A DNA stretch of 64,000 nucleotides from a bacterium (lineage in GTDB: Bacteria > Patescibacteriota > CPR2 > UBA1875 > CAIMLA01), in assembly GCA_037129835.1 (NCBI GenBank), contig JBAXUE010000006.1, forward strand, positions 6,157 to 70,156, in the 5' to 3' direction. The notes below the pieces were generated by a model. It was not told the DNA's origin, did no database searches, and worked only from the letters and a program-made list of their open reading frames with translations. Each line of letters begins with the position of its first letter. Positions within the stretch are counted from its first letter, which is position 1. Shown piece after piece: positions 554 through 62,531 of the stretch. Position numbers and translations under genes: made by a program.

Positions 554-3500
554 CTATCGCCCCATAAACCTATCGCCCAGCTTCCCAAAGAACTGATTAA
601 GCCGTCCGGTCCAAGCGAAAGTTTCTTCTAAAGACTTCAGAATAAGTTGCAGAATGGACTTCTCTTTGGTTGGTGTTACAAAGGTATAATCCTGTGATTC
701 AGTGATATTATTTCGTCTATCCTTAGATACCATCTTGTAGTGATAAGATGAAGCGGGTTTAAGCCCTTTGATAATAACTGTATGAGAATTATTGAGAGAG
801 GTATCTTCATTTGATTCATTGGAATAGTCATTTCCAAGGATTCCTTCACCATATTTTACTTGAGTAGAGGCTGGCTTGTTGGTCTGCCAAGAAACAATAA
901 TAGAAGACGTGGTATCACTTTCACCCATCGGTAATATATCCACCTTGGCATTAGTTATCTTTGGCCCTTCGGTATCTAGCGGAGTACGAATAATCTTGTC
1001 AGCATCAACTACTTCATTACCAGTCTCATCCTTGGCCACAATCTGATAATGATACTCTTGATTATCTAGAAGACTATCAACCTTAATCTGATGGGCCTTG
1101 GATACTCCTGTGATACCCCGCTTCTCACCATAAGCTGAGGTTACACCCCAATTAAGAATCGTCTCTGTATCAACATTTGTCTCCCAAGAGATTGTAACTG
1201 AATACGGAGTGACGTCTTTGACAGACATATTGCTTATTTTCGGTTTAATAACAGCCTTAAAAGAATACTCAGGTGACTGGTATTTAAAACCGTTTATATC
1301 TTCAGCAGCTACTATGTAATAATAAGTAGTCCCAGGAATTAAACCGGTTATTTGGATAACATGTCTGGTCGATATTTGATTATCAACAACTGAAAGATCC
1401 CTAGCACCAGGATATGTGCCATAATATACAGTCGCCTTAGTTGGTATAGCTGTTTCCCAGACTATCTGAGCCGTTGTGGCAGTGATGTTTCTGTCGGCAA
1501 TATTTGAAGCTTCGGGGGGGGCTGGTAAACTTACTAGAATCTGACTCAGAAGTCCAAAGCGATACCAGATTGTCTGTATAGGCGACATAACCATCAAGTG
1601 AGATAGCCTTTATCTTTACCAGGTAATTAGATGACGTGCGAAGTGGTGCGATATTCACCATATGGTCACAAAGTCTCACTTCTGCAATACTACCAGTACA
1701 AGAATACTTGCCCAGGTTACTTTCATTTATCGTAGCTGGTGTTTCGGCCTGTGAACCGTTATGTTCTCCGCTCGCTAAGGTATATTCTACAATATTCGTA
1801 TTTGATGGCATATTTGTAGACCAGTGAAGTTCTGCTGACATTGTAGACATCTTTGACTCTACTTGTTTATATGTAATAGTAAATTTTTCTGTCGATGCCC
1901 TTGGTAGAATATCATAAGATCCAACCCCACTATTTGAAGCAGTTGCCGCATTACCAAGTCTATTCCTGGAATATAGTGTATATTCATACTCAGTGCCTGG
2001 CTTAAGACCCTTGATTGTCGCTGTATGGCTTTTTGTAAATTCCGTATCTCCTGCTGCAACAAAAGCATCTTCCGTACCAGCTACCCTATATTCTACTAAT
2101 GAATCTGCGTCCTGATCAGTAACCCAATGCATAGTAAGTGACGAAACGCCCCTATACGTAATGGCTGCTTTTATGCCCCCGTTTCCTGATACTGGCATTA
2201 TTTTTGGCCAAGCATCAGTCGGATTTAAACTACCCATAGACTTATCGGTAACTTCACTTAGGTTATAAGGAGCTGTCATTACGCCATTACTAGTATAAGT
2301 ATTTATTGCCTGGCCACCGATATCTTTATCTCCAGTTTCGTCAGTTGTGCCATTATTAAAAACAAATACGGAACCAGAGTCGTCAACTGCTACTAATTTA
2401 TAGTAATATTCTTTATCGGCATCTACTCCTATCCCCAATCTATCTATGTAATAATTTGTACCAAGAGAAATTTCCTGATTTTCTGGATATGGAATATCTG
2501 GGTCTATGCTCCTGAGCGGGTTAGGGTTTTGCTCTGTACATTCTGTTGCTAAACCATAAGTACATATTTGCTCATAAAAAATTCCGGAAGTTATATCTAG
2601 TTCTCCTCCTGATCTATATATTCGGTATTCCTTAAAATCGTTAGCTCCTTTTCTCTTTGGAGTAGTTATTCTTTGCCAAGTAACAATATTCCGGTATTCA
2701 TTTGTTATATTAGGCGTAGAGGGGTCTTGGTCTGGGTGGATATCTTTTACATTTACACCTGTCACAATAGCTGGTTTAGTAACATCTGGAACAATATCCC
2801 AGCCGTAGCTTTGTATGGTATTAAACACCGTTGAGTGGCTTTGCGATTCTAGAACACCAGGAGATATCTCTGGATTTGTCCCCATTGCATATATTTCGTA
2901 TGTAAACTTGTCTGCATCCTGGCCGACTGGAATAGTATCAGTAAAGCAACGTGTCCCGTACTGCTTTGGCTCAAGCTCTCCATCACTGTCTGGGTCATAT
3001 TCTTTGTCAACCTGGAAAGGTGTTGTCATTTCGCCACAGCTAGGATCACCCGAATCTCTCGTATTACCTGGAATATTTAAACCAGTAACTCTAAATTGGG
3101 TTAGTTCTATAGGGGTTGGCTCAGATTCACTATAACGAAACACCTTATAGCCAGTAATAAAATTACCAACATCTTTTATAGTCGAACCTACATACTTTAC
3201 CTTTATGTCTTTTCCAACCCTCGTATTTGATATGTTTGGATCGCCACGGACTGCCTCTACGTTGACATAATATGGTGGATTCGGATATTTATCAGATAAG
3301 GTCTCTTTTTTCTCCGCATTAGAATCAATCGCTAAAGGATTATTGTTATTACTCAGATCATAAGCCTTGATCTTGAACCAATAATAAAATGGATTTGTGG
3401 AATCTTTGGGATCTAAGTCCAAAATAGCTGCCGTAGTATTAGTTCCATTTTCCTGGACCCTATAATCTTCGTAGGGTCCCGAAGAATCGCCCTTCGCATA

Positions 3501-6500
3501 ATAAATTTCGTATTTTTTTATTCCTGTTCCGTTGCCTTTAGGTAAACGGGTTAGATTATTCAAATCGCTTGCTGCATTCCAAGATAGATTGATCTGCTGT
3601 CTATTATTCGGGTCTAACCCCACGGCTGACAATTCTATTCCAGCCTCTGCGTCACAAGCTGTCAGATTTCCACTGCTATCATAGTGCGCCCAACAAGGAG
3701 CGGTTACATCTTTTGTCGTTGCAGAAGTGGCATTATTCATAATCAAATCATCATCAAAGGATTCACTAATAATATTTAACAAAGGTGTTCCATTAGCATC
3801 ATACTCAAATTGATTTCCATATATATCAATCGCCATTATCCGATAATAATATTTGGTATTATCGTTCAATCGGTCTACGGCTGTTCTGGCTGGTTTTATA
3901 ATCCGTTGTTCCTCCAATGGATCACTACCACTACCCATATCTATCAATATAGTTTTTGTTACTTCTGTTTGTAAGTTTGTATCATTATCGGTGTAATCAA
4001 GACTACCGCCTGCATCATTATATCCGACTAATAAATAATCATTAAAGTTACTACTGGCCGGTACAGTAGTTCGATAATATAAATAGCCCAAAACTCCACT
4101 AGAATCACTAGGAAGGTTCAGCGGGTCTAAGGAAATCTTGATAGAAAAGTCTTCCGTACCAGACGTAGCTGTGACATTTTTTGCAAAAGTAGGTGGATTA
4201 ATGTCTACAGTGGAAATACTTAGATGCCACTTTGAAGATGTTTGCCAACTACTACGGTTACCTACGTTATCCCAGACTCGGACTCTATATGTGTAGTCTT
4301 CTGAAGGGATAATCAGATGTTTTGGGTCGGTCGAATCAACACTATCAACAAAGTCTGTTAATTGTGAATTTGAAATATTCGGGAATGATTGATATCCACA
4401 ATCTTCTTCCATAGTGACATTCAAAGCATCTTCTGGACAACTGTCCCAATCGTTTGAGATAACAGTCCTTACGTCCCCTGTTTCCATCAAAAATTTGCTC
4501 TTGATCCGTTGTATCTCATATTTTTCTGTTGGGGACTCTTTATAAGAAGAAAGAGGGTCTACTGAGCCAGACATAGCATTTGTGTCATTATACAAACGAC
4601 TGTTTAGCCAACCCAGCTTAACATAGTCTGTATTCGACTCAGAAATGCTTATGCCAAAATTGGAATCTTTTACAGAAGATGGTGAATTTACATCATATCC
4701 GTAATACCAGCTCTCAGAAGAGCTCGTGGTATTACCACCAAAGTCTACTGCAGTCACTTTCCACTTATGATTACCGTTTGAGAGGACGGCCTGAGCTGTA
4801 GTCGATAGAGTAGTGGAAATTTTTATCTCTTTTTCACCAACATCTGTTATATCTCCATCAGAATTCTTATCTATCCAAAGCCAATATTCTTTGATCCCTA
4901 TAGTATCACCCGCAGCAGCCCACTCAAAAATAGGGTTATTATCTGTCCCCGACCACTGAGTGGTAGGACTCACTAGCGAGAAAGCAGTAGGGGGCTCTGC
5001 GTCGAGTGTAATAGAACGAGAAGTAAGCGCAGAACTCTCATTTCCTGCCGAATCAGTAAACTTAATATATACATTCTTTGCACTTATATTAGAGTTGCTA
5101 CCGCAGCCTGCATCACTCAAATCTACAGAAACTATATTGCTATCTCTACCAGAGACAAAACTACTTCCCGAAATAGTTGTCGTGTTGCACCAACTGGTCC
5201 CATCTAAAGATATTTTATAGTTAGCAAGATTTGAACCTCCAGTATCAGTAGCTGTAACATTGAGTCGAACGGTGTTGCTGTTACTGTATGTTGTACCGTT
5301 TGTAGCAGGGGTAATAACATTACCGCTCGTATCCCAAAAGCCACTAATAGTACTGGTAGGACCCGTACTATCTACCGTGACAGCAAACTGATTACCAGCA
5401 ACATTTTCGTTTCCTCCATTAGATGAGTTATCAACTCCCCTAACTGTGTAATAGTACGTCGTATCCGTAGGAGCTGTATCTGAATAAGAAGTACCTGTCA
5501 CAACACCAGCGGTGGATATCATCGTACCAAGTTGCCCGCTAGTAGCACTACGGTATACATTATAGCTAGCAACACTGGTCGCATTGTCTGTAGCTGCTGT
5601 CCAATGGAGAGAAACTGGATTCTTAGTAGCACTCGCACCGGTAAGCTCAGCGTGTAAGTCAGAAATGGTTGTTGGTGGCTGCGAATCTACTGCAAAAGAT
5701 GTAGTTGATACTGATGTTGATAGTTCCGCCTTGTCCTTAGCAGTTATACGAACTTTCACATTACTAGAATCAACAGCCGTCGGCAATGTCCAGCTATAGC
5801 TTCCTGAGTTGGCTATATTGGAAACTATATTTGTATAATTCGCACCATTATCAGTTGTATAGTCCAAAGTAATAGGCAGCGCCTTTAAGCCAGAGCTAGC
5901 ATCTGTAATCTTGGTCGTATCCCAAGTAATGTTCTTGGTAGTGCCACCCTTCCATTTTTCACTCCCAACTGGAGAGGTTATGGCTCCAGAAGCAACTGCA
6001 GGTACTGTGGTATCAAGGGTAAGAGAAGTCCTCGAGAATGTCTCTATAGAAATATCAAAAAGGCTTGGAGTGCTAACACCACCAGTAAGAGTCGCTTGAT
6101 ATTGAATATATTGCTTTCCATCAAAGGCATCCAGACTGCTCCCGTACACTACGGCTGAAGCAGCGCCCCAGGGGACATCTGAGAAATCTGATAAATTACT
6201 AGCCCTAACTTTTAAAGTAATCCCCGTACCAGCAGGACCGCCGTTTGCAGCGACAGATTGGGTAAGATTGAGCTTACCGTAAGCGATATTCGTCGTCGTA
6301 GCATTATTGACAGAAGAAGTAAAAATCCCAGATAACATGTAAATAGGTGCGCTATCGGCGACGCAACGTACATTGAGTACGTAGCTGGTTTTATTTACAA
6401 CCCCTTCATAGTTTGAGGCAAAATTATAAGCATACGCTTCGGTAGCATTTACCGACTCTGATGTCCAATAAGCGCCATAATTAATACTTAAACCACTAAA

Positions 6501-9089
6501 GTTATTCCCATATGTTGTTAGTCGACCGTTATAGATCTCATGAATTTCGGCTCTGTTGGGTAGCCGTCCGGGGCCCGTGATCGATGAACAAGTAGTGCCG
6601 GCTGCGTACCAGTTTGACGCAGACGAATCCTGATAATATACATACTTTCCGGCTAAAGCTGTACCACTTCTCCCGGCTGTCCAGACTGTGTTACTACCAA
6701 GGACGATCGTTCCGCCCGTAGATACTACATTGCTCAATTCTGGATATGGTGTTCTGGCTGTAAAATCAGCGTCACTGGTCTGACGGAACGCAATTACATT
6801 CCCCGCCTTATCCATCACCTGGGCATAGACATTCCTTGCACCATCGGTACCGCTATCTTTGGCACCTTTTATAAGATTCCAAGGATAAGTACCTGCCACA
6901 TCATAAGGCATCCAACAAACAGAATTTACCGTGTCCCAATATTTCGGTGTGGTACAGTTGCCCACATTGTCAGTGACTAATCCTGCGGAATCCGTAACCG
7001 TGCCCCAGCTTGAGCCATTATTTGAAAATCTAACATAAAGATTGGCAGGTAAAGGTGAAGATTTCACTGTCCCTGTGTCTGCAGCTGTGAGGTTGAGAGT
7101 AACTTCCTGGCTTTTGGCATACTTGGAACCACTTACGTCTGTAACATTACTACCAGTAACTGTAAAGGCTGATACAGCCGGAGAGTCCTGTTCTACTATA
7201 AATGTACCAGTGACATCACTCCATGGGCTCTGTACTCCAGCGCTATCTGTAAACCTTGCTTTCCAATAATAAGTATTACCCGATGTGAGTCCCGAAACAG
7301 TCGCTGTCAGGTTTGCTTGGTCTACATTGATAGTACCAGCTACTGTCGGATTAGAAATCGTAACACCACTTGGTACACCCGCTATTCCAGTGAAGCTTGA
7401 ACTTGTTTTTAACTCGATCTGTGGGGTGATAGCACCACTTGCTGTCGGGATACCGTTGAATACTAGCTTGGCAGTGGTTTCGTTAGTCGCGCCAGTGCTA
7501 ATAACCATGTCATTACTTTTTTTCGTAGTCAAAGTGGTCGGTTTTTCTGCTTCATTCCAGTTCAATTTGAGACTACTCAGAGTTGGAGTACCAAGTCCAG
7601 TAGAAGACTCAAGGCGCACCATTATATCAGCGTATCTGGCATTAGGCACACTCGCAGGTATAGTGTTTGAAACATTTGTATCGCCAGCAATACTACTGGT
7701 GCCAAAATAATTTGTTGTCCAAACATTCATATCTGAGACTACCCCATTTGGGCCATACCAGATAGCGGTATTGAATTCATCCTGTGGGCCATTGCCATTT
7801 GTATCAGCTGCCACAACGCGCAATCTGTATTTAACTGCTTCATTAGTCGCGACAGTATATACAGGCTCAAAAGTCGTAAACTTCGTAAGAAGAGCACCGA
7901 CTGTGGTACCTGTATCCAACCTGAGGCCAATATTTCCGACTGCAGTACCACCCATAACAGCTGGGGACTGGGATAGTAGGTTGCTGCCGGCCACTGGATA
8001 CTGACTTATATAATATATTTTGACTATGCCAGGACCGCTCGCACCACCATAACTGACACCATTTGCACCAACATTTATACTGAGGGTTACGCCAGCAATC
8101 GCACCGCTGATAGTACCGGAGATCAGACCGCCATAGCCGCCATTACCACCACTACCACCCGAACCAGTACCACCCGTTCCCCCTGCACTACCACCACCCG
8201 ATATATTGGCCGTTAGTGTTAGTCCTGTTGAGTTTGAAATGCTTGTCTGTCCAGGTAATCCGTCGTCACCCGCAGCACCATCGGGACCATAATCTCCTCC
8301 GCCTCCTCCAGTTCCACCCCCTGCTGTATATGTGATTCCGTTATAAGAAATACTGGATGGCCCTCCGGTTCCACCACCTCTACCAGCATAATGAGAATTA
8401 TAAGAACCGCCTGCCTCGCCGCCGCCGCCGCCAGCCCCATATATTTCTAGTGTCATCAAAGATACGTCGTTAGGAACAACAAATGTTTGGTCAGACCCAA
8501 CATTAAATATCTTTGTAAGAGTCGAGTAAATGCGGACGTTGTCGTCATTACCTGCGTCTCCGGGATCAATAGTCTTACCATTTCCAGACACTATCGCCTT
8601 TGTATTATTCGTAATAGCTGCCGTGGCTCCATCGTTGTTAGTAAAATCTTCTTTGGTAGTCCAAGTCTTCGAACTAGATTTTGCCAATGCGGCAGTAGGG
8701 TCAAATTGTTTAGTTTGTTGCATAAACAATAATACTATCAAAGCGACAGCAACACTGACATATGCCCCTCTTCTTATATGTTTGGGCTGGACACGTCGTA
8801 CTTTTGTTTTATTAACGACACCAGGACTAGCTTGTACGTGAATATTAGACTGATTTGTTGTATCTCTCGTTTTATTTAAAAATAATGGTATATGCAACCG
8901 GCTAAAGAAATTGCTTATTTCCCTAAACCACAAGTATGGTCTGTGAAATATATCGATAGCAATAAGCTTAATTTTCTTAAAATTATGCTTGGATAATCTT
9001 GATTTTCCTACATTAAAATAACCGTTGGTAGGCAGCCTCCTTAAAGCTCTAAGTCTTATCCTACTTGCATGAGCTTTATAAGGTTTCAT
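554..9089 (-). pseudogene. Giant (~2,890 aa if repaired) surface protein, paralog of 53214..62531, interrupted by a +/-1 frameshift inside a G8 homopolymer at 1514..1521
   Basis: ORFs 1437..9089 and 554..1597 overlap. Alignment to the paralog shows the correct frame switches exactly at the poly-G (…SKFTSPP / LPAPPEASNIADRN… against paralog …FTLAPASSNVAERN…). The protein has an N-terminal basic tail and one TM segment (VSVAVALIVLLF), a Gly-rich region, a DUF1566/Lcl-like segment (RLPNRAEIHEIYN…RCV), and many Fn3/Ig-like repeats. Its C-terminal ~350 aa are about 90% identical to the paralog. Confidence 0.75.
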
Positions 9090-21612: not shown

Positions 21613-21621
21613 ATTATCTCC

Positions 21622-22968: not shown

Positions 22969-23042
22969 TTATTCTCCTTATTTATTATCTATATACTATT
23001 TTTTGCCTTTAAGCTGAGAATCAACTGAATACAGCCTAGTTG

Positions 23043-29300: not shown

Positions 29301-29348
29301 AAGGCCAATGGTAGATTAATAGAGCAGAGAGCTCTTGGACATTAAAAA

Positions 29349-30412: not shown

Positions 30413-30425
30413 GAAAAGAGGGGCA

Positions 30426-53212: not shown

Positions 53213-53213
53213 A

Positions 53214-56200
53214 TCATTTCCCAATAAACCTATCACCGAGCTTCCCAAAGAACTGATTTAGTTTCCCAGTCCAAGCGAAAGTTTCTTCTAATGATTTAAG
53301 AATCAGTTGAAGGATTGATTTCTCTTTAGTTGGTGTTACAAAGGTATAATCTTGAGATTCAGTAATATTAGTTCTTTTGTCTTTAGAAATCATCTTATAA
53401 TGATAAGACGAAGCAGGTTTGAGACCTTTAATTATAACGGTATGTGAGTTATTAAGTGACGTGTCTTCATTTGACTCATTTGAATAATCTCCCCCAAGGA
53501 TCCCTTCACCGTATTTCACTTGTGTAGACGCAGGCTTATTGGTCTGCCAAGAAACTATAATAGAAGACGTAGTGTCGTTTTCTCCCATCGGTAGGATGTC
53601 TACTTTGGCATTGGTAATCTTCGGTCCTTCGGTATCTAAGGGCGTTCTTACTATCTTGTCAGTATCTGCGACTTCATTACCAGTTTCGTCTTTGGCAAGG
53701 ATTTGATAGTGATACTCTTGGTTATCTAGAAGGTTTTCAATCTTAACTTGATGGACTTTAGATACTCCGGTAGTCCCTTTCTTCTCGCCATAATTGGTAG
53801 TGGTACCCCAGTTGATGATTGTTTCAGTATCGACGTTGGTTTCCCAAGCTACTGTAACAGAGTAAGGAGTGATATCTTTCACTGACATGTTAGATATCTT
53901 TGGTTTTAAAACAGCGGTAAATGAGTATTCTTGAGAAGTATACTCTACCTCGTTAGCATCTTTAACTCTAACTCTATAGTAGTATTTGGTACCGGGTATT
54001 AGACCTTCGATCACCACTACATGAGAGCCGACTAGGTCATTATTACCTGCAGCGCCGTCATAGACTCCAGATGTAGTGGAGTAATCTACCCATGAGGTGG
54101 TAGGACTCTCTGTCTGCCAGACTATTTGTGCTGTTGTGGCTGTAATATTACGTTCTGCGACATTTGATGATGCTGGGGCTAGAGTGAACTGAGCTGAATC
54201 AAATGATTTGGTCTTGAATGTTGCAAATTCACCGGCTGGGTATTCGGCAAGATAGCCATCTTCTGAAATAGATTTGATCTTATAGGTATAGGTTCTAGCC
54301 GATCTTAATCCCTTGATCACCACTTTATGGTTTCTTGGACTTGAAGAAAGTGCAGCAGGTTCGACACCAGCTGTTCCACCTTGAGCATCGTCGCCTGGTT
54401 GTTTTTGCAATTGATACTCCACAAAAGCAGATGAGGCGTCAAGATTTGTGGCCCAAGCTATAGTAGTTGTAGAAGTGGTGGATGATACTGCGCCTGCTGT
54501 GATATTGAAGCCGGTGGTGGTGAGAGAAGGAAGCTGTGCTCCTTCTGCTGATACTGGGTTACCCAATGCGTTACCCGATGCAATAATATAATCATATGTA
54601 GTATTTGGACTAAGTCCAAAGAGCTCTACTGTGTGGTTTTGAACCATCCCCAGTCCTCTGCTATTATCACCTACACCTATTTGCTTATATGGATCACCGC
54701 TTCCAGATTTTCTAAAAGATACCATAGAGTCGCAATCTTGATCCGTTGTCCAAGTTACAGTGGCCGTTGCTACACCAACACTAGTTAAAATTGCTTTAAG
54801 CCCATTATGTTGATCTAGAATACTTGGTTTCGCTATGTATGGGTTAAGAGAAACTGATACAATCTTGCCGTCACTGCCAATATCGGGTTTCGATTCATTG
54901 AAATAGTTCGGATTGATGATGGTGTTTTGGTTTGGTGCGTTGTACTTATAAGTATCTCCAGAATCATCAGAAGCGGTAACGTGATAATAAAAGAACTTAT
55001 CTGACTCTGCCTGAGACCTAGGAATAAGATCCATATAATAGTTATTTGTTAGGGCTATCTCTTTGTCTGCATCATAAAGAGGGTTTGGATACTGGGTAGT
55101 ACAAGAAGGCAATAAAATAGTTGTTGTACCATTCTGACATATTTGTTCCCAAAGACTTCCGTCATTGATCGAGCGATATATCTTATACTCCTTAAAATCG
55201 TTAACCCCATTTCTAAGTGGAGTGGCTATCCTGGCCCAAGTGATGATATTTCTTCTGAAGTTGGTACCATCATCATGGATATCTTTAACCTTAACTAGCG
55301 AAGGAAGAGCCGGAGCAGTAGCATCTGGGGTGGTATCCCAACCAAGGTGAAGGGTACCAGGAGCAACAACAGAAAGACCAGAAAAAAGATTAGATTGAGA
55401 CGGTTGATTCGGTACAACAGTATTATCCTGGGCCCAAACACGATAATAGTAAGTAGTGGAATCCGTCAGGTTTATGTCAGTTATGGTGTGCGGAACTGTT
55501 CTGTCGTCTGGTGTCGGGGTAATATTTATAGTCTGTATTTTTGTAGCAGTATTTACTCTGACCCAACAATCTGATACTTTTTCTCCTGGGTTACAATTCC
55601 CGGCGATATTGGTGGTTGTCCTGTATACTTCGTATTTAACGATTTTATTAGAATATGAACTTGAACCAGTAAATGTTACTTCGGCTGTATGTCCGACAGC
55701 ATTATTTGTATTTGGGTCTCCCTTTGTGGTCACAACATCGATGTTTGCGGGGACACTAGGAACTTTTGAAGAATAAGTTACAACACTTGAAGTTTCAGAT
55801 AAGTCTGAAAGTACTGATTCTTTGGGAACACTATCATAGGCAGAAACGCGATAATAGTAATTAGTAGTATCGGCTAAACCTTCATCATTAAAGCTTGTAG
55901 CTGTAGTGGTTTTGATTGGAGCAATATCCCATGGACCGAGATCCGAAGTAGACCGATAGACATGATAGGTAATAGTCCCAGGTACGATATCTTCACTTCT
56001 GGCTTTGTAATCATTCGATGCACCCCAAGAAACATTAATCATCTGACTCTCGTTGGAATTATCTAGCCCTTGTGCGTTTGCAACCACATTGTTTGGCACA
56101 GTTGGTGCCGTAACATCTGGAGTGCCTGGAGTAGTTCGGGCAAAGTTCTGGTCTGGGGAAACAAAATTTGAATCACCAGATGCAGGTACGAGTGAAGTCT

Positions 56201-59200
56201 CATTACCAATAGTAGCACCATCAACAGCGGTAATTCGATAATAATAGGTCGTTGAATCATTTAGTCTAGTTGTTGCAGCTGGCTTGTCTGCACCATAGGT
56301 TGTGTCATTATGAGCATCGTTATCATACCAAAGAGTGTTTTCTAAACCAGTTGGGGTATAAAGAACACCAACAACTACCCAAGAAGCGAGATCGGATTCA
56401 TTTGTTGTTCGATATATTTTATATTTAGCGACACCGGAACCATTATCGTCGGCTGCAGTCCAAGTAATCTTAGTTGAAAAGCCTTTGGTGTTATCATGGG
56501 CAGTTGGTGTATCGCTATCAGTCGCGTCGCAGGTTGCTCCGGTCCCATCACAGGCAGTTGCGCCTTTTCCGATTCCGATTTTTGGTGGGACTTCTGGATC
56601 TGCTACATCTCTGGTTAAAGCATATAAAGGTGCATTTTGATAGTTACCATAAGTTGGGTTGGATTGATCTCGTGCCGAGATACGATAGGCATAGCTAGTA
56701 CTAAGACTGATGAGCGGTTGACCCTGTTTTGCCAAAAGAGCATCATCAACAAATGTAAGTTCCGTAGTCGTGTACTTTGCATAACCTGCGAGAGTTGACC
56801 AGGCGGTTGTCTCGTCTGTGAGACCAGGATACACGGATTTTTCTACTCTCTCTATCTTGTAGTTTAATAGTGGAGCGCCACTATTAGTTGGGACCGCATT
56901 CCACTTGAGTTTGATCTGAGTATCTGGAAATTCTGGAGTTTCTGATACAAAACCAGTAACTGCGGATGGTAGTGATTTATCGAGATTATACTGAAAAGTA
57001 GTGATGTTATTTGAAATATAGCCAACATTATCAACTGCGACAACCCGGAGATAGTAGATACCGTCAATTGAACTAGCTAGGTCAGCTGTTAGGTGAGGTG
57101 AATTGCCGGGAGTCGGAGTAGTTGGGGTACAGTTTGAATCTGTTGTTAGACAATATCTATATGTCGCGATACCAGAGCCAGTGTCGTCAGCTACCCACTC
57201 AAAATATGGTGCCGTATATGGATACCAGGTAGTTGTATTGTCAGCAGTGATATTATGAGTTTTTGTTGCATTTTCGTATGCTTCAAGGCTAGTGACATCT
57301 GTTGGGACCGAGGTATCAACAGAGAGAACAACTGAAGTTGCTCCCGTGACTGAGTTATCTGCGACATCAGTAGTGATGACACGATAGTAGTAGGTGCCTT
57401 CAGCCAAAGAGGCGTTATCGGCATAGCTCACCGTACTAGCATTTGTAATATGAGCATTTGGATCGGATATATCAGTAAATGTTCCACCAGAGCCTACCTT
57501 TCTTTGCAACTGATATGAGCCAAAGCCAGATGATGGAGCGGGGTCAGAGAAAGAACTCCAAACAATGGTCTGATTACCTGTATTGTTCGGATTTGGAGTA
57601 ATCGAAGAGATAGAATTAGCCGTTGGCAGAGTATTATCAACAACGATAGTCCCAGTCTGCTGAGTCGCTGAATTTCCAGAACCGTCGGTAGCATCTACTT
57701 TGTAGGTATACGAACCATCAACAACAAAAGCTACTGAGTCATTCTTACCATCCCAGTCTACGGTATGTACTCCTTGAGTTTGTGAGACATTATTAGACAG
57801 TATTCTAACCAAAGTTACTCCGCTATAGATTCTGACAGTAGTATTGGCATTACCAGTCAGATTATCAGCTAAAGTGTATGTGATAGTGGCAGTATCTTTG
57901 TTGCCAACCGACGCATTTGGAGAAAATGGAGTTGGCGTAACAGAAACGGCAGTAATAGTTGGGGAAGTTGAGTCGATAGTGAAGTTCGCGTCCGAGACAT
58001 CGCTTGCATTATTACCTACAGCATCAAAAGCCGTCAAACGAACAGAGACAGTCGCTAAATTTAGCGAAGGGACCGGATTCCAAGTGTATACACCGGTGTT
58101 GGCCGTACCCGTAGTGATACTAGTCCAATCAGTTCCATTGGTTGAGTAGTCAAGTTGAATCGGTGGTGTTGCAGTACGAAGTCCTGAACCTATACCATCA
58201 CCTATAGACCCGCTGTTCCAGGTGATGCTTTGAGATGAACCACCTTTCCACTTCTCTCCGCCATTTGGAGCAGTGAGAGTAGAGGAAGTGACTGTTGGTG
58301 CCTGTGCATCGACGGTGATGGAGGCTTTGTCGAAGCTATTTAGAGTCACACTAGTAAGCTGGGGATATGTACTACCACCACCGAGTGCTAATGTGGCTTG
58401 ATATTGAACATATCTTTTGCCAGCGAGAACTGCGCTTACTTCATTTCTAGTAACTGTAGTCCAGCCGTTACTGTTAGTCCATGTACCATCTGGGGTAGCT
58501 GTATTACCTGCTTTTACTTGCATAGTGATAGTACCTGGAGACGTAACAGTATTCCAGTCTACGCTAGTGAATGTCTTGGTAGCACCCATGTCTTTGACTG
58601 GGGAGATGAAGGTACCGGCGGTGCCGGAGCCGCCAGGACTTACCGAGCCATCTTGAATACATCTGGTGTATTTTACCGAATCATAAAGATTATTTTTAGT
58701 TGAATATGATTCTGTGGCACCATACATCCAAGTTATAAACCGAAAAATCTTTACATTGATAGTATTTTCTTCGGTAGCGGAATAATACCAACCATCAGAT
58801 GTAAAAGAACCGTAATGACCCGCTCTATACCCAGCGTAAATTGCTTTAATTTCGTCCACACGGGGAAGACGACCTCCGAGCGCTTTACACGCGGCTTGTG
58901 CAGGATAAGAGGTGAAGTTTTCTGATGGAAATATCTGAGGGCTAACGAGTGAATAATTCGAAGGAAAAACTAAATCAAGACCAGTATTACACTGGGGGCT
59001 TCTACAATCAGTTATTGCGTCTTTCCAAATAATACCGGACAGATCTTGGTTATAAACTGATTTTCCTACTAATGTAGCAGGATAATTAGTTTCTGCTTGA
59101 CCCGCCAGCCAAGGACCTGTAGCACAAACTCCTTCACTTACATAACCGCTAACACATTCTGTCCCAAGTGTGGCCGCCACGCCATTGGCTTTCAGTAACT

Positions 59201-62200
59201 TAACACCAGTATTTCCAGGATTTAAGGCAATGTCTGTACCTCTAGTGCCTGTCGAGTAGTCTGTTGTTGTCGACGGAACAGTTCCGCTCACATTACCCGC
59301 ATTGTCCCTATATTGAGCATAAAGTGTTTTGGCACCATCTCCAACAGAGAGTGTCCAAGGCTTAGATGCGAGGTATGGTAACCAATCTGTACCTGCTGGG
59401 TCAAATGTGCCCGTTTCTGAGAATCTCATCTGCCCAACACCAGCTCCACCAGTATCTGCGGTGGTATTTGTGAGAGTTACTGTACCAGAGGTAGCATAAG
59501 CTGCTCCGCCATTTATAGCTACAGTACCTGTAGGAGCTGTTTGTTCTACGGAGAAGTCTGCTTGGGTGACATCGGTATTTCCACCATATGATTGCCAAGG
59601 AGACACACGTCCTTCATTGTCTTTTGAACGAATGCGGAAGTGATATGCTCCTACTGCTAGATTTGGAATAGTCACAGTAGAGTTTGAGTTATCAGGAGCA
59701 TCACCTACGATGAGGTTCGTTGATTCGTTCGCAAATGCGGTGTTTACTGGGTTGTATTGTAGCTCTATCTTTCTACTAGTAGAAGTACCACAAGCAGTAC
59801 AGGTAAGGCCTGTCGTTTTTACTTTGATAGTAGATTCTGAGGTCCAAGCAGCAGATAGGCCAGCAGTCACGTTATTTCCAGATGAGTTCTTCAGAACTGT
59901 AGTTCCGTCACTTCGATACATGGTAGTTAAGCTGTTTTGTGGAGTTTCAATGGAATCATAGGTAAGGGTAACATCAGAGAGAACTGGGGTATTAGAACCA
60001 TCTCCTTCAAAACGAACAAGTATCTCTGAATATCTTTTGTTTCCGATGGTATTTAGGATAGAGGTGGCTGATTTGGTAGGATTTGGCGGATCTGCCCCGT
60101 TATATGACTGTGAGAAGAAGCCTCCAGAGTTTGTCCACCAAGAAGAACAGGCTCCACTTCCACTTGGACCATAACAAAGTGAACTATCAAGACCTGTCTG
60201 GTCATCACCCGCCCTAACAGTAAAGAGAATCTTTTGACTTGTTTTGTCTGTTGTACCATTCCAGTTAATAGCAGAAGGCTTTGCTTTGTTTCCGATTCCT
60301 CCAGTGGTTTCCGCATCAAAACGAAGACCGATGTTTCCAGCGACAGCACCACCCAATGAACCAGAAGTACTATACGTCACATTATTTACTGTGACAGAAT
60401 TTAAAGTTGGAACATTATTATTATTTGAAGAAAGAAGAGTTGCTCTGTATTGAAAATACCGACCAGAGAAAGAAGCGAGAGAACCACCATTTGTTACTGC
60501 GCCCCATGCTTGCCAGGTGCCATCGGGAGTGGCAGTAGTACCAGATCGAAACTCCAACGTTATCGAAGTATTTGCCTGCAGTGTTTCTGTCCAAGAGAGA
60601 GTCGAGTATCCAACTGGAGTTGTATTGTCTTTGACTTGGGAGGTGAAGGTACCGGGAGAGCCACCGGAAGAGCTGGAGCTATTTTTTACACACCTAACAC
60701 TAGTTGTAGCCCCTACGTTTTTCCAATAACTTTGCTGACCCGCTGCATAAAACTGAAATGTATTAACGTAATTGCTATCGACTTCAGTGGCGGATAAATA
60801 ATAACCAGAATATTGACTTTCAGCAAAGTTGTTCCCATATATGGCTCGTCCTGTGTAGATAGCCGAAAGTTCCGTCATTGTTGGCAATCTTCCACCGATA
60901 GCTTTACACGCTGCTTGCGTTGGATATTCCGTAAATAGTTCAGACGTGAATACCTGGGGGCTTACTAAAGAATATTTATTATTGTAGGGTGCTGCATCAA
61001 GGCCTATTGAACATTGCGGTGAAACACAAGAAGTATTGGAAGTTTTCCATTGATAAGGCCCCGAGGCAAGATCAGATCTATATACTTGCTTTCCTTCAAG
61101 TGCGGTGCCAACCGAGCCCAGATATCCCCAATTTGCACAAACCCCACCGCTTCTATAACCACTCGCACACTCGGCATCAGCCGCCGCTGTTGCCCCAATT
61201 GGCTTCAAAAGATACACGGTGTTTGTCCCAACTGCTGTATTTGATTGAGTCCCTGCTGTGAAGTTCGCTGTAGTGTTTTCGGTCGTTGGGGTGCCAGCTG
61301 AAGATGGGAGTTTTGGATCACCATTATTTAGATTAAGCGCAGCCAATGCCGAAGTGAGATATCGTACAATAACAACCCCAGAACCTCCAGACATACTAGT
61401 GCCGCCACCACCGCCTGTGTTGGGAGTCCCAGCAGTTTGTCCACCTAAATACCAACCTCGACCGCCACCTCCATTTCCACCTAAGGCATAATTTAAAGAC
61501 CCTCCTGCTCCACCTCCACCTCCATAGTAAAGGGAAGCTCCCGTGATGCTATTGGCTACTCCCACTCCACCTGCGCCAGCTTGAGTGTTGCTTGCATTTG
61601 CGCCCGCAGCCCCAGCCCCACCGCCACCCCCACCAGCCCACTGGTTATTCGGGCCATAATAAATACCATTACCACCATTGTATCCCTGAGTACCAGCACC
61701 TCCCAGAGTAGCAGAAGAAGCTGCTGTACCACCTCCGCCACCAGAAGCACCACTAAGACCGGCTGTAACCCCGTCTGACGCTCCCCCACCACCCAGCGCT
61801 GTAACACTTGAAAATACCGAGCTTTGCCCATTAGTAGAGGCGGCACCACCATTCCCAACAGTAACGGTGTAAGTTTGTGGGGTAACAGGCACAGAAGCAC
61901 TGTAGACTACTCCTCCAGCTCCGCCGCCGCCACCACCACCGTTATATCCGCCGCCACCACCACCGCCGCCGCCAACAACAAGAGAAGAGACAGAAAGACT
62001 GGCCCCCGTAACCACCAACGAACCCGAGCTAGTAAATTTATGAATGGTATATAATCCATCGGTTGTTACTGTACCTCCCGTAATCGATGGGGTTATTGTC
62101 ACATTCCCTGTCCCCCCATTATTATTCGTAAAATCAGCTAGGGTATTCCAGGTTTTTGAGAGATTACTAGCCAAAGACTCACCCGGTCTAAAAATATTTA

Positions 62201-62531
62201 GATATGGTGATACAAACTGAATACCGGTAAAAAGAATCAGAGATACAAAAAAAGCGGTCACTGTCGCTCTAGCGACCGGTTTTGTAGCTGGATGTTCTGA
62301 TACTTTCTTATAGCTAGGACTGTTGGTAACGAGTACGTCGTGATATTTACGAATGTTTAGATGAAGTTTATAGGTAAGTTCATAACGTAGTAGCGCGGCT
62401 TTGGCTATGATGAATGAAAGAAACTTAACTAAATATACGCCAAAAAAGCTAGAAATAGCTACAAATGCTTTCTTGTAGAAACGCTTATTATCCTGAGAGC
62501 TAGGTTTTTTTACCAAACTCCCTCCCTTCAC
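53214..62531 (-). CDS. Giant (3,105 aa) surface protein: N-terminal basic tail + TM anchor, Gly-rich region, two DUF1566/Lcl-like lectin segments, many Fn3/Ig-like repeats
   Basis: Uninterrupted 9.3-kb ORF. TM segment VTAFFVSLILFTG, a conserved post-TM motif LSKTWNTLADFTNNNG, long poly-Gly runs, and two …GGRLP(T/R)…E(L/I)…RC(V/I) segments. It is the intact paralog of 554..9089. Confidence 0.9.
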   Translation of the reverse strand: MKGGSLVKKPSSQDNKRFYKKAFVAISSFFGVYLVKFLSFIIAKAALLRYELTYKLHLNIRKYHDVLVTNSPSYKKVSEHPATKPVARATVTAFFVSLILFTGIQFVSPYLNIFRPGESLASNLSKTWNTLADFTNNNGGTGNVTITPSITGGTVTTDGLYTIHKFTSSGSLVVTGASLSVSSLVVGGGGGGGGGYNGGGGGGGAGGVVYSASVPVTPQTYTVTVGNGGAASTNGQSSVFSSVTALGGGGASDGVTAGLSGASGGGGGTAASSATLGGAGTQGYNGGNGIYYGPNNQWAGGGGGGAGAAGANASNTQAGAGGVGVANSITGASLYYGGGGGAGGSLNYALGGNGGGGRGWYLGGQTAGTPNTGGGGGTSMSGGSGVVIVRYLTSALAALNLNNGDPKLPSSAGTPTTENTTANFTAGTQSNTAVGTNTVYLLKPIGATAAADAECASGYRSGGVCANWGYLGSVGTALEGKQVYRSDLASGPYQWKTSNTSCVSPQCSIGLDAAPYNNKYSLVSPQVFTSELFTEYPTQAACKAIGGRLPTMTELSAIYTGRAIYGNNFAESQYSGYYLSATEVDSNYVNTFQFYAAGQQSYWKNVGATTSVRCVKNSSSSSGGSPGTFTSQVKDNTTPVGYSTLSWTETLQANTSITLEFRSGTTATPDGTWQAWGAVTNGGSLASFSGRYFQYRATLLSSNNNNVPTLNSVTVNNVTYSTSGSLGGAVAGNIGLRFDAETTGGIGNKAKPSAINWNGTTDKTSQKILFTVRAGDDQTGLDSSLCYGPSGSGACSSWWTNSGGFFSQSYNGADPPNPTKSATSILNTIGNKRYSEILVRFEGDGSNTPVLSDVTLTYDSIETPQNSLTTMYRSDGTTVLKNSSGNNVTAGLSAAWTSESTIKVKTTGLTCTACGTSTSRKIELQYNPVNTAFANESTNLIVGDAPDNSNSTVTIPNLAVGAYHFRIRSKDNEGRVSPWQSYGGNTDVTQADFSVEQTAPTGTVAINGGAAYATSGTVTLTNTTADTGGAGVGQMRFSETGTFDPAGTDWLPYLASKPWTLSVGDGAKTLYAQYRDNAGNVSGTVPSTTTDYSTGTRGTDIALNPGNTGVKLLKANGVAATLGTECVSGYVSEGVCATGPWLAGQAETNYPATLVGKSVYNQDLSGIIWKDAITDCRSPQCNTGLDLVFPSNYSLVSPQIFPSENFTSYPAQAACKALGGRLPRVDEIKAIYAGYRAGHYGSFTSDGWYYSATEENTINVKIFRFITWMYGATESYSTKNNLYDSVKYTRCIQDGSVSPGGSGTAGTFISPVKDMGATKTFTSVDWNTVTSPGTITMQVKAGNTATPDGTWTNSNGWTTVTRNEVSAVLAGKRYVQYQATLALGGGSTYPQLTSVTLNSFDKASITVDAQAPTVTSSTLTAPNGGEKWKGGSSQSITWNSGSIGDGIGSGLRTATPPIQLDYSTNGTDWTSITTGTANTGVYTWNPVPSLNLATVSVRLTAFDAVGNNASDVSDANFTIDSTSPTITAVSVTPTPFSPNASVGNKDTATITYTLADNLTGNANTTVRIYSGVTLVRILSNNVSQTQGVHTVDWDGKNDSVAFVVDGSYTYKVDATDGSGNSATQQTGTIVVDNTLPTANSISSITPNPNNTGNQTIVWSSFSDPAPSSGFGSYQLQRKVGSGGTFTDISDPNAHITNASTVSYADNASLAEGTYYYRVITTDVADNSVTGATSVVLSVDTSVPTDVTSLEAYENATKTHNITADNTTTWYPYTAPYFEWVADDTGSGIATYRYCLTTDSNCTPTTPTPGNSPHLTADLASSIDGIYYLRVVAVDNVGYISNNITTFQYNLDKSLPSAVTGFVSETPEFPDTQIKLKWNAVPTNSGAPLLNYKIERVEKSVYPGLTDETTAWSTLAGYAKYTTTELTFVDDALLAKQGQPLISLSTSYAYRISARDQSNPTYGNYQNAPLYALTRDVADPEVPPKIGIGKGATACDGTGATCDATDSDTPTAHDNTKGFSTKITWTAADDNGSGVAKYKIYRTTNESDLASWVVVGVLYTPTGLENTLWYDNDAHNDTTYGADKPAATTRLNDSTTYYYRITAVDGATIGNETSLVPASGDSNFVSPDQNFARTTPGTPDVTAPTVPNNVVANAQGLDNSNESQMINVSWGASNDYKARSEDIVPGTITYHVYRSTSDLGPWDIAPIKTTTATSFNDEGLADTTNYYYRVSAYDSVPKESVLSDLSETSSVVTYSSKVPSVPANIDVVTTKGDPNTNNAVGHTAEVTFTGSSSYSNKIVKYEVYRTTTNIAGNCNPGEKVSDCWVRVNTATKIQTINITPTPDDRTVPHTITDINLTDSTTYYYRVWAQDNTVVPNQPSQSNLFSGLSVVAPGTLHLGWDTTPDATAPALPSLVKVKDIHDDGTNFRRNIITWARIATPLRNGVNDFKEYKIYRSINDGSLWEQICQNGTTTILLPSCTTQYPNPLYDADKEIALTNNYYMDLIPRSQAESDKFFYYHVTASDDSGDTYKYNAPNQNTIINPNYFNESKPDIGSDGKIVSVSLNPYIAKPSILDQHNGLKAILTSVGVATATVTWTTDQDCDSMVSFRKSGSGDPYKQIGVGDNSRGLGMVQNHTVELFGLSPNTTYDYIIASGNALGNPVSAEGAQLPSLTTTGFNITAGAVSSTTSTTTIAWATNLDASSAFVEYQLQKQPGDDAQGGTAGVEPAALSSSPRNHKVVIKGLRSARTYTYKIKSISEDGYLAEYPAGEFATFKTKSFDSAQFTLAPASSNVAERNITATTAQIVWQTESPTTSWVDYSTTSGVYDGAAGNNDLVGSHVVVIEGLIPGTKYYYRVRVKDANEVEYTSQEYSFTAVLKPKISNMSVKDITPYSVTVAWETNVDTETIINWGTTTNYGEKKGTTGVSKVHQVKIENLLDNQEYHYQILAKDETGNEVADTDKIVRTPLDTEGPKITNAKVDILPMGENDTTSSIIVSWQTNKPASTQVKYGEGILGGDYSNESNEDTSLNNSHTVIIKGLKPASSYHYKMISKDKRTNITESQDYTFVTPTKEKSILQLILKSLEETFAWTGKLNQFFGKLGDRFIGK

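Follow-up and report, generated by a model that had tools for sequence, protein, structure and literature searches.

A conserved C-terminal module in giant Fn3-containing proteins of Patescibacteria

Much of bacterial diversity belongs to the Patescibacteria, which grow attached to other microbes. For the building and holding of their host-contact surface, published genetic studies point to pili, to a type IV secretion-like system and to a small number of adhesins. Large surface proteins with Fn3 domains have been described in the group, including the 'very large proteins' of Absconditicoccaceae (PMC13059738) and the essential Fn3/VCBS/dockerin adhesins of Southlakia epibionticum (PMC10633639), and a role in host contact is proposed or shown for them. 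The two giant proteins analyzed here, G1 and G2, resemble them in that they belong to ultra-small organisms, exceed 1,500 aa, have a signal peptide or transmembrane (TM) helix and carry adhesion-type domains that include Fn3. This likeness is one of description, and the passages of the two reports on these proteins mention neither a conserved Fn3-helix tail at the C-terminus nor a conserved module at the N-terminus, nor any link with a MacB-type transporter.

Two giant paralogs in a 64-kb window

The window, by which we mean the whole stretch of 64,000 nt analyzed, contains two real giant paralogous genes on its minus strand, as the initial annotation had proposed: G1 at 554-9089 and G2 at 53214-62531. 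G2 is intact, encodes 3,105 aa from a GTG start and equals protein P0097, and G1 is divided between ORFs at 1437-9089 and 554-1597. A third paralog, G3, which has an RCC1 propeller head, begins ~120 nt outside position 1 of the window and lies in tandem with G1, after an intervening GIY-YIG gene; the gene after G2 encodes an acetyltransferase. G1 and G2 do stand at the two sides of a 52-kb segment, but with G3 in tandem with G1 this 'bracketing' is incidental. Neither G3 nor the frameshift in G1 had been recorded in the initial annotation. The contig breaks inside G3, and a collapse on the G1/G2 repeats was ruled out as the cause because identity there is only 73% over 160 nt. No repeat tract was seen at the junction of the split type III mod gene.

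The two proteins are colinear homologs with ~30-33.6% identity over ~2,660 aa (blastp; 2,663 alignment columns). When identity was plotted along both proteins in 50-column windows, it was found to be concentrated toward the C-terminus, as had been claimed, with a diverged body: values of ~20-40% in the body give way to 52%, 60%, 74% and up to 90-96% in the last ~320 aa. The description of the last ~350 aa as near-identical holds for the final ~170-220 aa, where protein identity is at least 90%, and not for the full length. At the nucleotide level, the earlier figure of 85-90% over the last 1.1-1.3 kb does not stand: the sole repeat is a gapless match of 711 nt (minus strand, 560-1270 in G1 and 53220-53930 in G2) that is 78.6% identical, with 82% in its best 300 nt and 85-88% only in single 60-nt windows. 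The same steep contrast between body and C-terminus exists between genomes, with identity between the relatives L003a and L004a falling from 94% in the final 173 aa to 64% over the preceding 157 aa and to 38% farther upstream.

Of the other domains proposed for these proteins, glycine-rich regions are present in both. The one in G2 (61359-62000, minus strand; aa 178-391) matches Pfam Gly_rich_2 (PF21722) with an E-value of 9.7e-18 and 65.4 bits against a cut-off of 24.3; its counterpart in G1 is similar by eye and gives no Gly_rich_2 match at E<=0.01. The match to DUF1566/Lcl-like lectin segments is weak: only an 'RLP..E(L/I)' core and a trailing 'VRCV' are visible by eye, and the Pfam threshold is not reached. 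In G2, a weak Lcl_C/DUF1566-like segment (60684-60890, minus strand; aa 548-616) scores 17.2 bits with PF07603 against a cut-off of 34.9, and the G1 segment (6087-6674, minus strand; aa 806-1001, core 'GRLPNRAEIHEIY'), which is homologous to G2 aa 472-699, gives no PF07603 match at threshold. The C-terminal Fn3 arrays were recovered by Pfam in both proteins, all above the gathering score: the G2 array (53331-54794, minus strand; ~aa 2580-3067) comprises five Pur_ac_phosph_N/fn3 stretches (PF16656, 96.6 bits over the 5 stretches; PF00041, 73 bits), and the 3' ORF of G1 scores 87.1 bits with PF16656 and 53.6 bits with PF00041. The arrangement suggests variable heads, made of a Gly-rich domain plus DUF1566-like lectin segments in G1 and G2 and of the RCC1 propeller in G3, that would be followed by a long Ig/Fn3 stalk and then by the family-defining C-terminal module.

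Conservation of the module and the frameshift in G1

In the last 173 codons of G1 and G2, synonymous sites are saturated (pS 0.70, Ks ~2) and few nonsynonymous sites differ (pN 0.041, Ka 0.04), which gives the shared module a Ka/Ks of ~0.02; the upstream segments have pS values of 0.73-0.88 and pN values of 0.13-0.52. The explanation we favor, at somewhat better than even confidence, is that the three genes G1, G2 and G3 are old paralogs within a Patescibacteria-wide family of giant Fn3/Ig-rich surface proteins, and that the high C-terminal similarity of G1 and G2 reflects strong purifying selection on the module and not recent gene conversion.

The initial annotation had regarded the two copies as direct repeats that are live substrates for gene conversion or deletion, and one can imagine that ongoing conversion keeps the C-termini alike while the repeats promote deletion or rearrangement of the 52 kb. 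The copies do have the same orientation, and their identity is concentrated at one end; their modules are 88% alike as against at most 81% to relatives from the genome scan, pS in the last 173 codons is slightly under that of the neighboring segments (0.77-0.80), and in one relative a family gene has been reduced to an internal-deletion remnant (L033). Recent conversion or deletion is nevertheless unsupported, because synonymous sites are essentially saturated, the longest exact match within a repeat of such modest identity spans 23 nt, G1 is equally close to G2 and to P0106, a protein of a different MAG, and essential genes lie between the copies. A run of 23 nt is at or below the minimal length for efficient RecA processing. 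The G1 module is 88% identical to those of both G2 and P0106 (G2 and P0106 are 85% identical) and groups with P0106 in a tree, and concerted evolution is absent from multi-copy genomes elsewhere, in which paralogs cluster by ortholog group and not by genome. The 52 kb between G1 and G2 contains the genes for IleRS, MurD and ribosomal protein L25, and therefore its deletion should be lethal. Synonymous saturation, the short exact match and the cross-genome tree together rule out recent gene conversion, so the conversion reading is largely refuted for recent events and very improbable as a whole. An old exchange may have occurred between the G1 and G2 modules, which share 31 of 68 four-fold sites against a background of ~30%, a slight excess. 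The finding as first stated is negative: the copies do not form a recombination hotspot, and one of the two now carries a frameshift.

The frameshift lies at a run of eight Cs (1514-1521, minus strand; G8 on the plus strand), ~320 codons before the end of G1, that places the C-terminal module in the +1 frame. As written, the 5' reading frame (1437-9089, minus strand) continues for 25 out-of-frame codons past the C8 run before its stop and yields a 2,550-aa product without the shared module, and seven Cs would restore a 2,844-aa protein. The C-terminal part (554-1513, minus strand) is a conserved, intact +1 frame of 319 codons plus a stop, with three Fn3 domains and the tail. The same C8 run was recovered in four assemblies (ERZ27300174, ERZ27300165, SRR7053572 and SRR7053528) that represent two assemblers and at least two runs, which makes an assembly artefact unlikely. 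The codons at the CCC-CCC-CGA shift site are uncommon but not extreme (CGA, 40 of 409 Arg codons; CCC, 65 of 551 Pro codons), and no stimulatory element for programmed +1 frameshifting was seen at this site.

Contingency genes for surface proteins that contain homopolymer tracts are known in Neisseria, Haemophilus, Campylobacter and Mycoplasma. As in these phase-variable genes, a G/C homopolymer within the ORF of a surface protein sets the reading frame of G1 by its length. Differences are that the G1 tract has only 8 nt and lies near the 3' end, where it would switch the tail and not the whole protein, and that length variation was not seen among the four assemblies. In the sampled population, G1 carries a real C8 frameshift that removes its C-terminal module. 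It would then be either a pseudogene of very recent origin or a gene whose slippage-prone tract is in an 'off' or released state. It is also conceivable, though unlikely, that G1 is merely a decaying pseudogene, or the frameshift a sequencing artefact, without regulatory meaning. Large genes are large mutational targets, and further members of the family are disrupted, with L010 split in two frames, a TAG in place of a conserved Trp codon in L040, and the L033 remnant; the constant length of C8 across all four assemblies would also fit simple decay. An artefact is difficult to reconcile with recovery of the same tract by two assemblers from separate runs, and C8 is one of only two G/C runs of at least 8 nt in the 64 kb, where ~0.26 are expected (the second abuts the G1 stop codon). 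In addition, the 319 downstream codons are fully open and the module they encode has no excess divergence, its identities to G2 and P0106 being no lower than that between G2 and P0106, so any inactivation must be very recent or bypassed.

The two conserved ends of the family

The N-terminal features in the initial annotation, a basic stretch, one hydrophobic helix and an SKTW(T/N)T..DFTNN(D/N)G motif, were found in both proteins. In G1, the helix (8721-8765, minus strand; aa 109-123) is preceded by ~108 basic residues and followed on the same strand by A-L-A at 8682-8693 and the motif SKTWTTKEDFTNNDG at 8628-8672. The G2 helix (62211-62267, minus strand; aa 89-107) is likewise followed by S-L-A at 62169-62180 and SKTWNTLADFTNNNGG at 62112-62159. 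Both proteins have the order that characterizes the family (basic region, single hydrophobic helix, small-x-small site, T-W-containing motif), and neither has a further TM segment, the C-terminus included. All 14 aligned members of the subfamily conserve the -3/-1 motif, and distant family members have canonical short signal peptides that end in A-x-A and precede 'AT(F/Y)xWxQ'. With the N-terminal 153 aa as query, a word-indexed search gave one relative, and no Pfam or NCBIfam model matched this module even at E<=10; it was studied from genome loci.

The N-terminus may best be read as an extended cleaved signal peptide, in which the [ASVI]-x-A motif directly ahead of the conserved 'SNSKTWTT..DF.NN' stretch would be the signal peptidase I site, a candidate assignment based on motif match. 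Such an organization, with a basic region and one helix, no other TM segment and Fn3/Ig ectodomains, is the topology to be expected of an extracytoplasmic protein. If the helix is uncleaved, on the other hand, the conserved module would be the distal tip and not an anchor: the helix would be a permanent type II anchor, and the C-terminal Fn3-helix module would bind a conserved ligand on a host or partner cell at the end of a ~100-nm fibre. Ahead of the helix is a long stretch of conserved sequence ('RYELTYKLHL.VR..HD..YKK') that goes beyond the needs of a plain signal peptide; the putative A-x-A site lies 13-14 residues past the hydrophobic core in G1 and G2, which is long for a c-region; a C-terminal TM segment is absent; and epibiotic growth of Saccharibacteria requires Fn3-containing adhesins (PMC10633639). 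We regard this topology as rather doubtful, since the ligand-binding tips of adhesins usually diversify, whereas this one would be the best-conserved part of the protein, and since this topology would put the lectin-like and propeller heads beside the membrane. Distant family members also have ordinary short signal peptides with A-x-A sites, and in other phyla homologous Fn3 giants carry sorting signals at the C-terminal end.

The C-terminal module consists of two Fn3 domains and a terminal helix of ~35 aa, "KSILQLILKSLEETFAW". In G2 it occupies the last 230 aa (53217-53906, minus strand), of which the tail TKEKSILQLILKSLEETFAWTGKLNQFFGKLGDRFIGK (53217-53330, minus strand) is predicted to form a lone helix; the corresponding G1 tail is TKEKSILQLILKSLEETFAWTGRLNQFFGKLGDRFMGR (557-670, minus strand). 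An AF2 model of the 230-aa G2 module contains two Fn3 domains with pLDDT >85 and a helix at residues 198-227 with pLDDT <50, and a Foldseek search with this model returned only generic tandem FnIII ectodomains (E 1e-8) that do not indicate a function.

The proposal that this module is a shared, conserved functional cassette was supported: in many Patescibacteria genomes, proteins of 1,400-6,300 aa have it at their very C-terminal end. Searches gave 15 protein matches and, in MAGs of Patescibacteria, CPR2 and Peribacteria, 26 genome loci. The tail is the extreme C-terminus of the ORF at 24 of the 25 loci examined, the exception being the weak match L026, and the 20 complete ORFs among them encode 1,400-3,450 aa. 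At least 52 of the top 150 HMMER representatives (587-6,321 aa) carry the tail motif S-[IVL]-[LIF]-x-[LIV]-I-x3-[LF]-E-x2-F-[GA]-[WF] 4-24 residues before the stop, and named members include Uhrbacteria and Parcubacteria. In G1 and G2, the form 'S-I-L-Q-L-I-x3-L-E-x2-F-[GA]-W' occurs after the last Fn3 domain and no more than ~25 residues from the stop. No Pfam or NCBIfam model matched the tail in a profile search of the module, even at E<=10, and no description of the motif was found in an incomplete coverage of the literature, which gives weak evidence of novelty.

Known sorting routes were not recognized in G1 or G2. The pattern LP.[TSA]G occurs nowhere in either protein, and neither has a C-terminal hydrophobic segment or an NCBIfam match that would indicate an LPXTG signal. 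The T9SS type A sorting domain (TIGR04183) is also without a match in G1 and G2, although tail-less Fn3 giants on the same HMMER list end in this domain (3e-9 to 4e-12), which offers an analogy for a possible sorting role of the tail. GGxGxD arrays typical of T1SS RTX proteins are absent from both, apart from one chance match inside the Gly-rich region, and the Pfam matches in the window include neither HemolysinCabind nor T1SS components; unlike RTX adhesins of the LapA/SiiE type, G1 and G2 have an N-terminal signal-like helix.

Another recurring feature lies outside the giant genes. In ten loci (L013, L018, L019, L022, L024, L025, L034, L036, L037 and L038), genes for an ABC ATPase and a MacB_PCD/FtsX permease are located 4-270 nt downstream of the giant gene, and at L039 the contig ends after the ATPase gene. 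These transporters are mutual orthologs and occur in short-tail subfamilies. Neither the window nor the closest relatives (L003-L012) have a MacB-type operon. An ABC/FtsX pair encoded in the window (20944-22968) was rejected as a partner transporter, as it is not orthologous to those of the operons.

We infer that the module most likely serves in anchoring or sorting at the cell-proximal end of the protein. The amphipathic terminal helix of ~35 aa, placed after two to three Fn3 domains, may lie in the membrane plane or dock onto an envelope partner, which in other subfamilies could be the MacB-type ABC transporter whose genes follow immediately. With the module at the cell, the variable N-proximal heads would be turned outward to a target or host. 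This orientation and the host contact itself follow from the arrangement of domains, and contact is plausible by analogy with the published Patescibacteria adhesins (PMC10633639, PMC13059738). Hydrophobic moments of 0.33-0.54 at mean hydrophobicities of -0.19 to 0.50 give the tail a borderline membrane-seeking signature; at a mean near 0 the moment is 0.47-0.51, which together with the low AF2 confidence does not clearly predict a membrane-seeking helix.

The terminal helix could instead be a coiled-coil element that bundles giant chains, possibly of different paralogs, and is conserved because paralogs must co-assemble. Hydrophobic residues are spaced at i+3/i+4 continuously over ~30 residues, a lone low-confidence helix in AF2 is typical of helices that need a partner, and several paralogs per genome have the same tail. 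Oligomerization is nonetheless improbable, since the tails of distant members have only ~20-25 residues and end 4-6 aa past F-G-W, which is short for a stable coiled coil, and since it leaves the linkage to MacB-type transporters unexplained.

An anchoring or sorting role could be extended to a more speculative proposal that we consider quite unlikely as a whole: the module would be an undescribed C-terminal sorting or docking signal of Patescibacteria, the MacB-type transporter would take, hold or release the giant fibres, and C8 would toggle G1 between a tail-bearing, cell-bound form and a tail-less form that is released or inactive. If true, an ATP-driven mechanotransmission device would deploy host-contact proteins in bacteria without known sorting systems. 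The family appears to be one of Sec-exported proteins with conserved ends and a fast-evolving, module-shuffled middle. The locus provides a useful sequence handle: a motif of ~17 residues after the last Fn3 domain selects, throughout the phylum, a single large family of giant proteins of the cell surface. In many lineages these tail-bearing giants are genetically tied to a MacB-type ABC transporter, which makes the anchoring or sorting hypothesis testable in a few cultivable strains.

Comparison with known systems

Tandem genes for giant surface proteins have been described in another small genome, that of Apilactobacillus kunkeei, where Giant1-5 (3,000-8,000 aa) have N-terminal binding domains on long stalks and diversify by short intragenic recombination and domain exchange (PMC12863079). 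They differ from G1 and G2 in phylum, in their beta-solenoid heads and in their documented recombination tracts, none of which were detected between G1 and G2.

MacB-type (type VII) ABC transporters act on extracytoplasmic partners via helical contacts, as in FtsEX-EnvC/PcsB/RipC, LolCDE and MacAB, and FtsX-type permeases hold their partners by helical domains. Relatives of G1 and G2 resemble such systems in having an ABC ATPase and a MacB_PCD/FtsX permease in an apparent operon with a tail-bearing giant gene. To our knowledge, no system of the MacB type acts on giant Fn3 proteins. MacB itself is covered in a review (PMC8277102). The window departs from this arrangement, as it has no such operon and its own ABC pair is not orthologous to the operon transporters.

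In E. coli, PBP5 and PBP6 (DacA and DacC) are Sec-exported periplasmic enzymes with a cleaved signal peptide, and a C-terminal amphipathic helix rich in F, W, K and R keeps them at the outer surface of the cytoplasmic membrane, an arrangement that an in-plane anchor of G1 and G2 would resemble. The giants are not related in sequence to these enzymes and are enormously larger, and the hydrophobic moment of their tail is ambiguous.

Gram-positive wall-anchored giants include the serine-rich repeat proteins and Ebh/Embp, in which a conserved C-terminal element fixes the protein to its own cell. Wall-anchored adhesins of this kind are LPXTG/sortase substrates with KxYKxGKxW or YSIRK signal peptides (PMC7587433). 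G1 and G2 are unlike them in lacking LPXTG, a C-terminal TM segment, a basic stop-transfer tail and a match to NCBIfam sorting signals. Like them, however, they appear to combine a long specialized signal peptide with a binding region near the N-terminus, a long stalk of repeats and a C-terminal element that is conserved.

Gene structure and identity profile of the giant paralogs

The window contains two giant minus-strand genes, whose products the initial annotation proposed to be surface proteins. One, G2 (53214-62531), is an intact open reading frame (ORF) of 3,105 aa; the other, G1 (554-9089), had been read as a single gene and instead consists of two overlapping minus-strand ORFs of 2,550 aa (1437-9089) and 347 aa (554-1597). 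A third giant paralog, G3 (L002:19210-25329, on the contig containing the window), begins outside the window, ~120 nt past its position 1; it follows G1 in tandem on the same, minus strand and encodes at least 2,040 aa before the contig end cuts it. The N-terminal architecture and module of G3 are those of G1 and G2, and it carries an RCC1/WD40_RLD propeller (343 bits) where these two have a Gly-rich region. G1 and G3 are separated by a small gene of opposite orientation for a 95-aa GIY-YIG nuclease (49-336, plus strand; Pfam 2.9e-15), after which the motif 'GTCATCC' occurs four times at 340-540; similar small GIY-YIG genes occur near family members at loci L014 and L026.

The homologous reading frame of G1 switches at a run of eight C residues (C8; 1514-1521, G8 on the plus strand), where 'FTSPP' in frame 0 gives way to EASNIADRNITATTAQ in frame +1, the counterpart in G2 being FTLAPASSNVAERNITATTAQ. 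Deleting one C from this run produces a 2,844-aa G1 protein with no stop. The window sequence comes from a 96,110-bp MEGAHIT metagenome contig (ENA ERZ27300174 k141_341801), and the frameshift is real at the consensus level, because the same C8 recurs in three more assemblies (ERZ27300165, Logan SRR7053572 and Logan SRR7053528; overall identity 99.98-100%). As written, the G1 product is without the terminal module of the family. The 319 codons 3' of the shift are open and show no extra divergence, so the shift is very recent, reversible or bypassed. Phase variation at this tract is possible; all four assemblies show C8. Two G/C runs of at least eight were found in the 64 kb versus ~0.26 expected; the second, a G9 on the G1 coding strand (546-554), begins with the G of the G1 TAG stop codon.

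Repaired G1 and G2 align colinearly with 33.6% identity over 2,663 columns, and their N-terminal ~130 aa add a further stretch at 27% identity. Checked along both genes in 50-column windows, identity is ~20-40% in the body and climbs over the last ~320 residues from 52% through 60% and 74% to 90-96%, so it is indeed concentrated C-terminally; describing ~350 aa as near-identical overstated a ramp. The only significant DNA match between the genes is 711 nt, ungapped, at 78.6% (560-1270 versus 53220-53930), with 82% in the best 300 nt and 60-nt windows falling to 55-67% upstream, less than the 1.1-1.3 kb at 85-90% originally reported. The described basic N-terminal stretch, single hydrophobic helix and SKTW..DFTNN motif are present in both proteins. 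Among the predicted domains, Gly_rich_2 was recovered in G2 and C-terminal Fn3 arrays in both, and the DUF1566/Lcl assignment fell under the Pfam threshold.

A C-terminal module across the family

The C-terminal module, consisting of conserved Fn3 domains plus a terminal helix (the tail), extends well beyond the window. A word-indexed search matched the last 230 aa of G2 to 15 proteins, most of them fragmentary and on contigs of 0.7-4 kb, which is expected because a multi-copy conserved segment breaks assemblies. Scanning one genome per GTDB species yielded 26 loci in Patescibacteria-type MAGs, including CPR2 GW2011_GWC2_39_35 (three copies), Peribacteria and MAGs labelled Saccharibacteria, with two or three copies per genome being common. 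The tail is at the extreme C-terminus of the matched ORF in 24 of 25 loci examined (the exception, L026, is a weak match), 20 of these 24 ORFs are complete (1,400-3,450 aa), and S-[IA]-[LIF]-x-[LIV]-[IV]-x3-[LF]-x3-F-[GAS]-[FW] stands a few residues before the stop even in relatives at 30% identity. An exhaustive HMMER search with a profile covering the tail and the Fn3 domain before it placed the tail motif 4-24 residues before the stop in at least 52 of the best 150 50%-identity representatives (587-6,321 aa); named members belong to Uhrbacteria and Parcubacteria and are annotated just as hypothetical or Fn3-containing. No Pfam-A or NCBIfam model touched the tail or the N-terminal module with the cut-off relaxed to E<=10, and Fn3-type families are all that the homologs' precomputed Pfam lists contain. 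AlphaFold2, given a 14-sequence alignment, predicted two Fn3 domains with confidence (pLDDT mostly 85-94) and, C-terminal to them, a single isolated helix at residues 198-227 (pLDDT <50); a Foldseek search with the model returned nothing beyond generic tandem FnIII ectodomains. This family-wide terminal placement supports the earlier view of the C-terminus as a shared functional cassette.

It had also been proposed that the two repeats are substrates for gene conversion or for deletion of the DNA between them. In the last 173 codons of G1 and G2, pS is 0.70 (Ks ~2) and pN 0.041 (Nei-Gojobori); the segments upstream of these codons have a pS of 0.73-0.88 and a higher pN, 0.13-0.52. Because differences in the shared module are nearly all synonymous and near saturation, the module appears to be under long-standing purifying selection on the protein rather than recently homogenised. 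No stretch of exact identity exceeds 23 nt. In other multi-copy genomes, modules group by ortholog across genomes (88% for L003a/L004a, 97% for L003b/L004b, 82% for L007/L008) and not within a genome (~73-78%). G1 and G2 are 88% identical over 230 aa, versus at most 81% for relatives in the genome scan. P0106 (MEI6267021.1), from another MAG, is nevertheless 88% identical to G1, with which it groups, and 85% to G2; the similarity marks membership of one subtype and not an event inside a single genome. Four-fold sites are identical slightly more often than background (31 of 68 versus ~30%), which leaves room for old exchange only. Recombinational deletion of the 52 kb between G1 and G2 should be inviable, because IleRS, MurD, a racemase, ribosomal protein L25, tRNAs and other core genes sit there. 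The proposed recombination between the repeats is thus not supported.

The same segment probably includes an integrated mobile element (26713-36328), in which tRNA-Asp (26713-26789, plus strand) abuts a large serine recombinase gene (26748-28385, minus strand), followed by a type III restriction-modification system (mod 30426-33594, res 33587-36328). The methylase domain is split between overlapping ORFs (30426-32258 and 32206-33594; profile positions 1-109 and 136-213) with no repeat tract visible at their junction, reflecting either a frameshifted or a two-part gene.

Conserved ends in this family enclose a shuffled middle. With the last 330 aa set aside, almost every pair of bodies shows 25-45% identity, and the closest partner changes by segment (L003a for the G3 body, L006 for the G2 body). 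The L003a/L004a pair, from different genomes, has a profile as steep as that of G1/G2 (94% over the last 173 aa, 64% over the next 157 aa, 38% further upstream). The second conserved block is the N-terminal ~130 aa, ordered as 'RYELTYKLHL.VR..HD..YKK', a hydrophobic helix, an invariant Ala and 'SNSKTWTT..DF.NN'. Other members are disrupted: the L010 giant (CPR2 GW2011_GWC2_39_35) is split mid-gene into two overlapping frames (5963-6012), and in L040 (~880-890) a TAG replaces a conserved Trp codon ~415 codons before the end. In addition, a 211-aa remnant (L033:984-1619; Logan ERR15945786 contig, two samples) joins the N-terminal module directly to the last Fn3, with the tail truncated before the helix, and looks like an internal-deletion derivative. 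Disruptions of this sort fit a family of very large genes undergoing birth-and-death turnover.

Topology, transporter linkage and a proposed anchoring role

A hydropathy scan found hydrophobic segments at the N-terminus only. Signal peptidase I cleavage sites obey a -3/-1 rule, and the residues directly before 'SNSKTW' are consistent with it, being [ASVI]-x-A in 13 of 14 aligned subfamily members and A-x-G in the other. In more distant proteins with the tail, the signal peptide is of the usual short type, ending in A-x-A and followed by 'AT(F/Y)xWxQ..W.GG'. The N-terminus is therefore read here as an extended, cleavable signal peptide. If it is cleaved, the mature protein would have no membrane segment, its variable Gly-rich, lectin-like or propeller heads would lie near the mature N-terminus, and the C-terminal module would be the sole conserved element left able to hold or sort it. 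Among the same HMMER matches, Fn3 giants of other phyla have a T9SS type A sorting domain precisely where the module stands, which supports the analogy with a sorting signal. Our best reading, given roughly a one-in-three to even chance, is that the module anchors or sorts these proteins.

In short-tail subfamilies, genes for an ABC ATPase, which in many cases is extended at its C-terminus by 100-200 aa, and a MacB_PCD/FtsX permease lie 4-270 nt downstream of the giant gene. This linkage was found at L013, L018, L019, L022, L024 and L025 and in five of six further representatives (P0119, P0150, P0073, P0017 and P0025; absent at P0051). Coordinates of such pairs, which directly follow tail-bearing giants in many distant Patescibacteria, include L013:10988-13134, L034:24551-27039, L036:19200-21775, L037:17739-19712 and L038:13625-16366. 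The linked transporters are mutually orthologous, with permeases 33-43% identical over full length. MacB-type transporters act on extracytoplasmic partners and FtsEX holds its partners via helical domains, so by analogy the tail helix could, speculatively, dock on the permease.

No MacB-type transporter adjoins the giant genes in the window or its closest relatives. The latter adjoin genes for a VirD4/TrwB-like coupling ATPase or type IV pilus proteins (PilM, PilB-type ATPase), downstream of the giants at L003-L005 and L012 and ~5 kb downstream at L006-L009, L014 and L018; L003 and L004 have two tail-bearing giants in tandem. An ABC pair in the window (20944-22968) matches the giant-linked transporters in the FtsX membrane region only. 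Its genes form a minus-strand row of ABC ATPase, FtsX-type permease, histidine kinase and response regulator (20944-24729), a layout reminiscent of Bce-like modules for sensing or detoxification and unrelated to those transporters.

Comparison with known surface proteins

Gram-positive serine-rich adhesins carry extended signal peptides, a logic comparable to that proposed for the N-terminus in this family, and Gram-positive adhesins place their binding regions where its variable heads stand. Earlier reports describe giant surface proteins with Fn3 domains in Patescibacteria and adhesins of which some are essential for epibiotic growth (PMC13059738, PMC10633639). Outside this group, giant surface-protein genes arranged in tandem are known to evolve by exchanging domains (PMC12863079). 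G1 and G2 are further members of this reported kind; what seems to be uncatalogued is the Fn3-helix tail found C-terminally across the phylum, the extended N-terminal module with its conservation, and the repeated occurrence of an operon with a MacB-type transporter.
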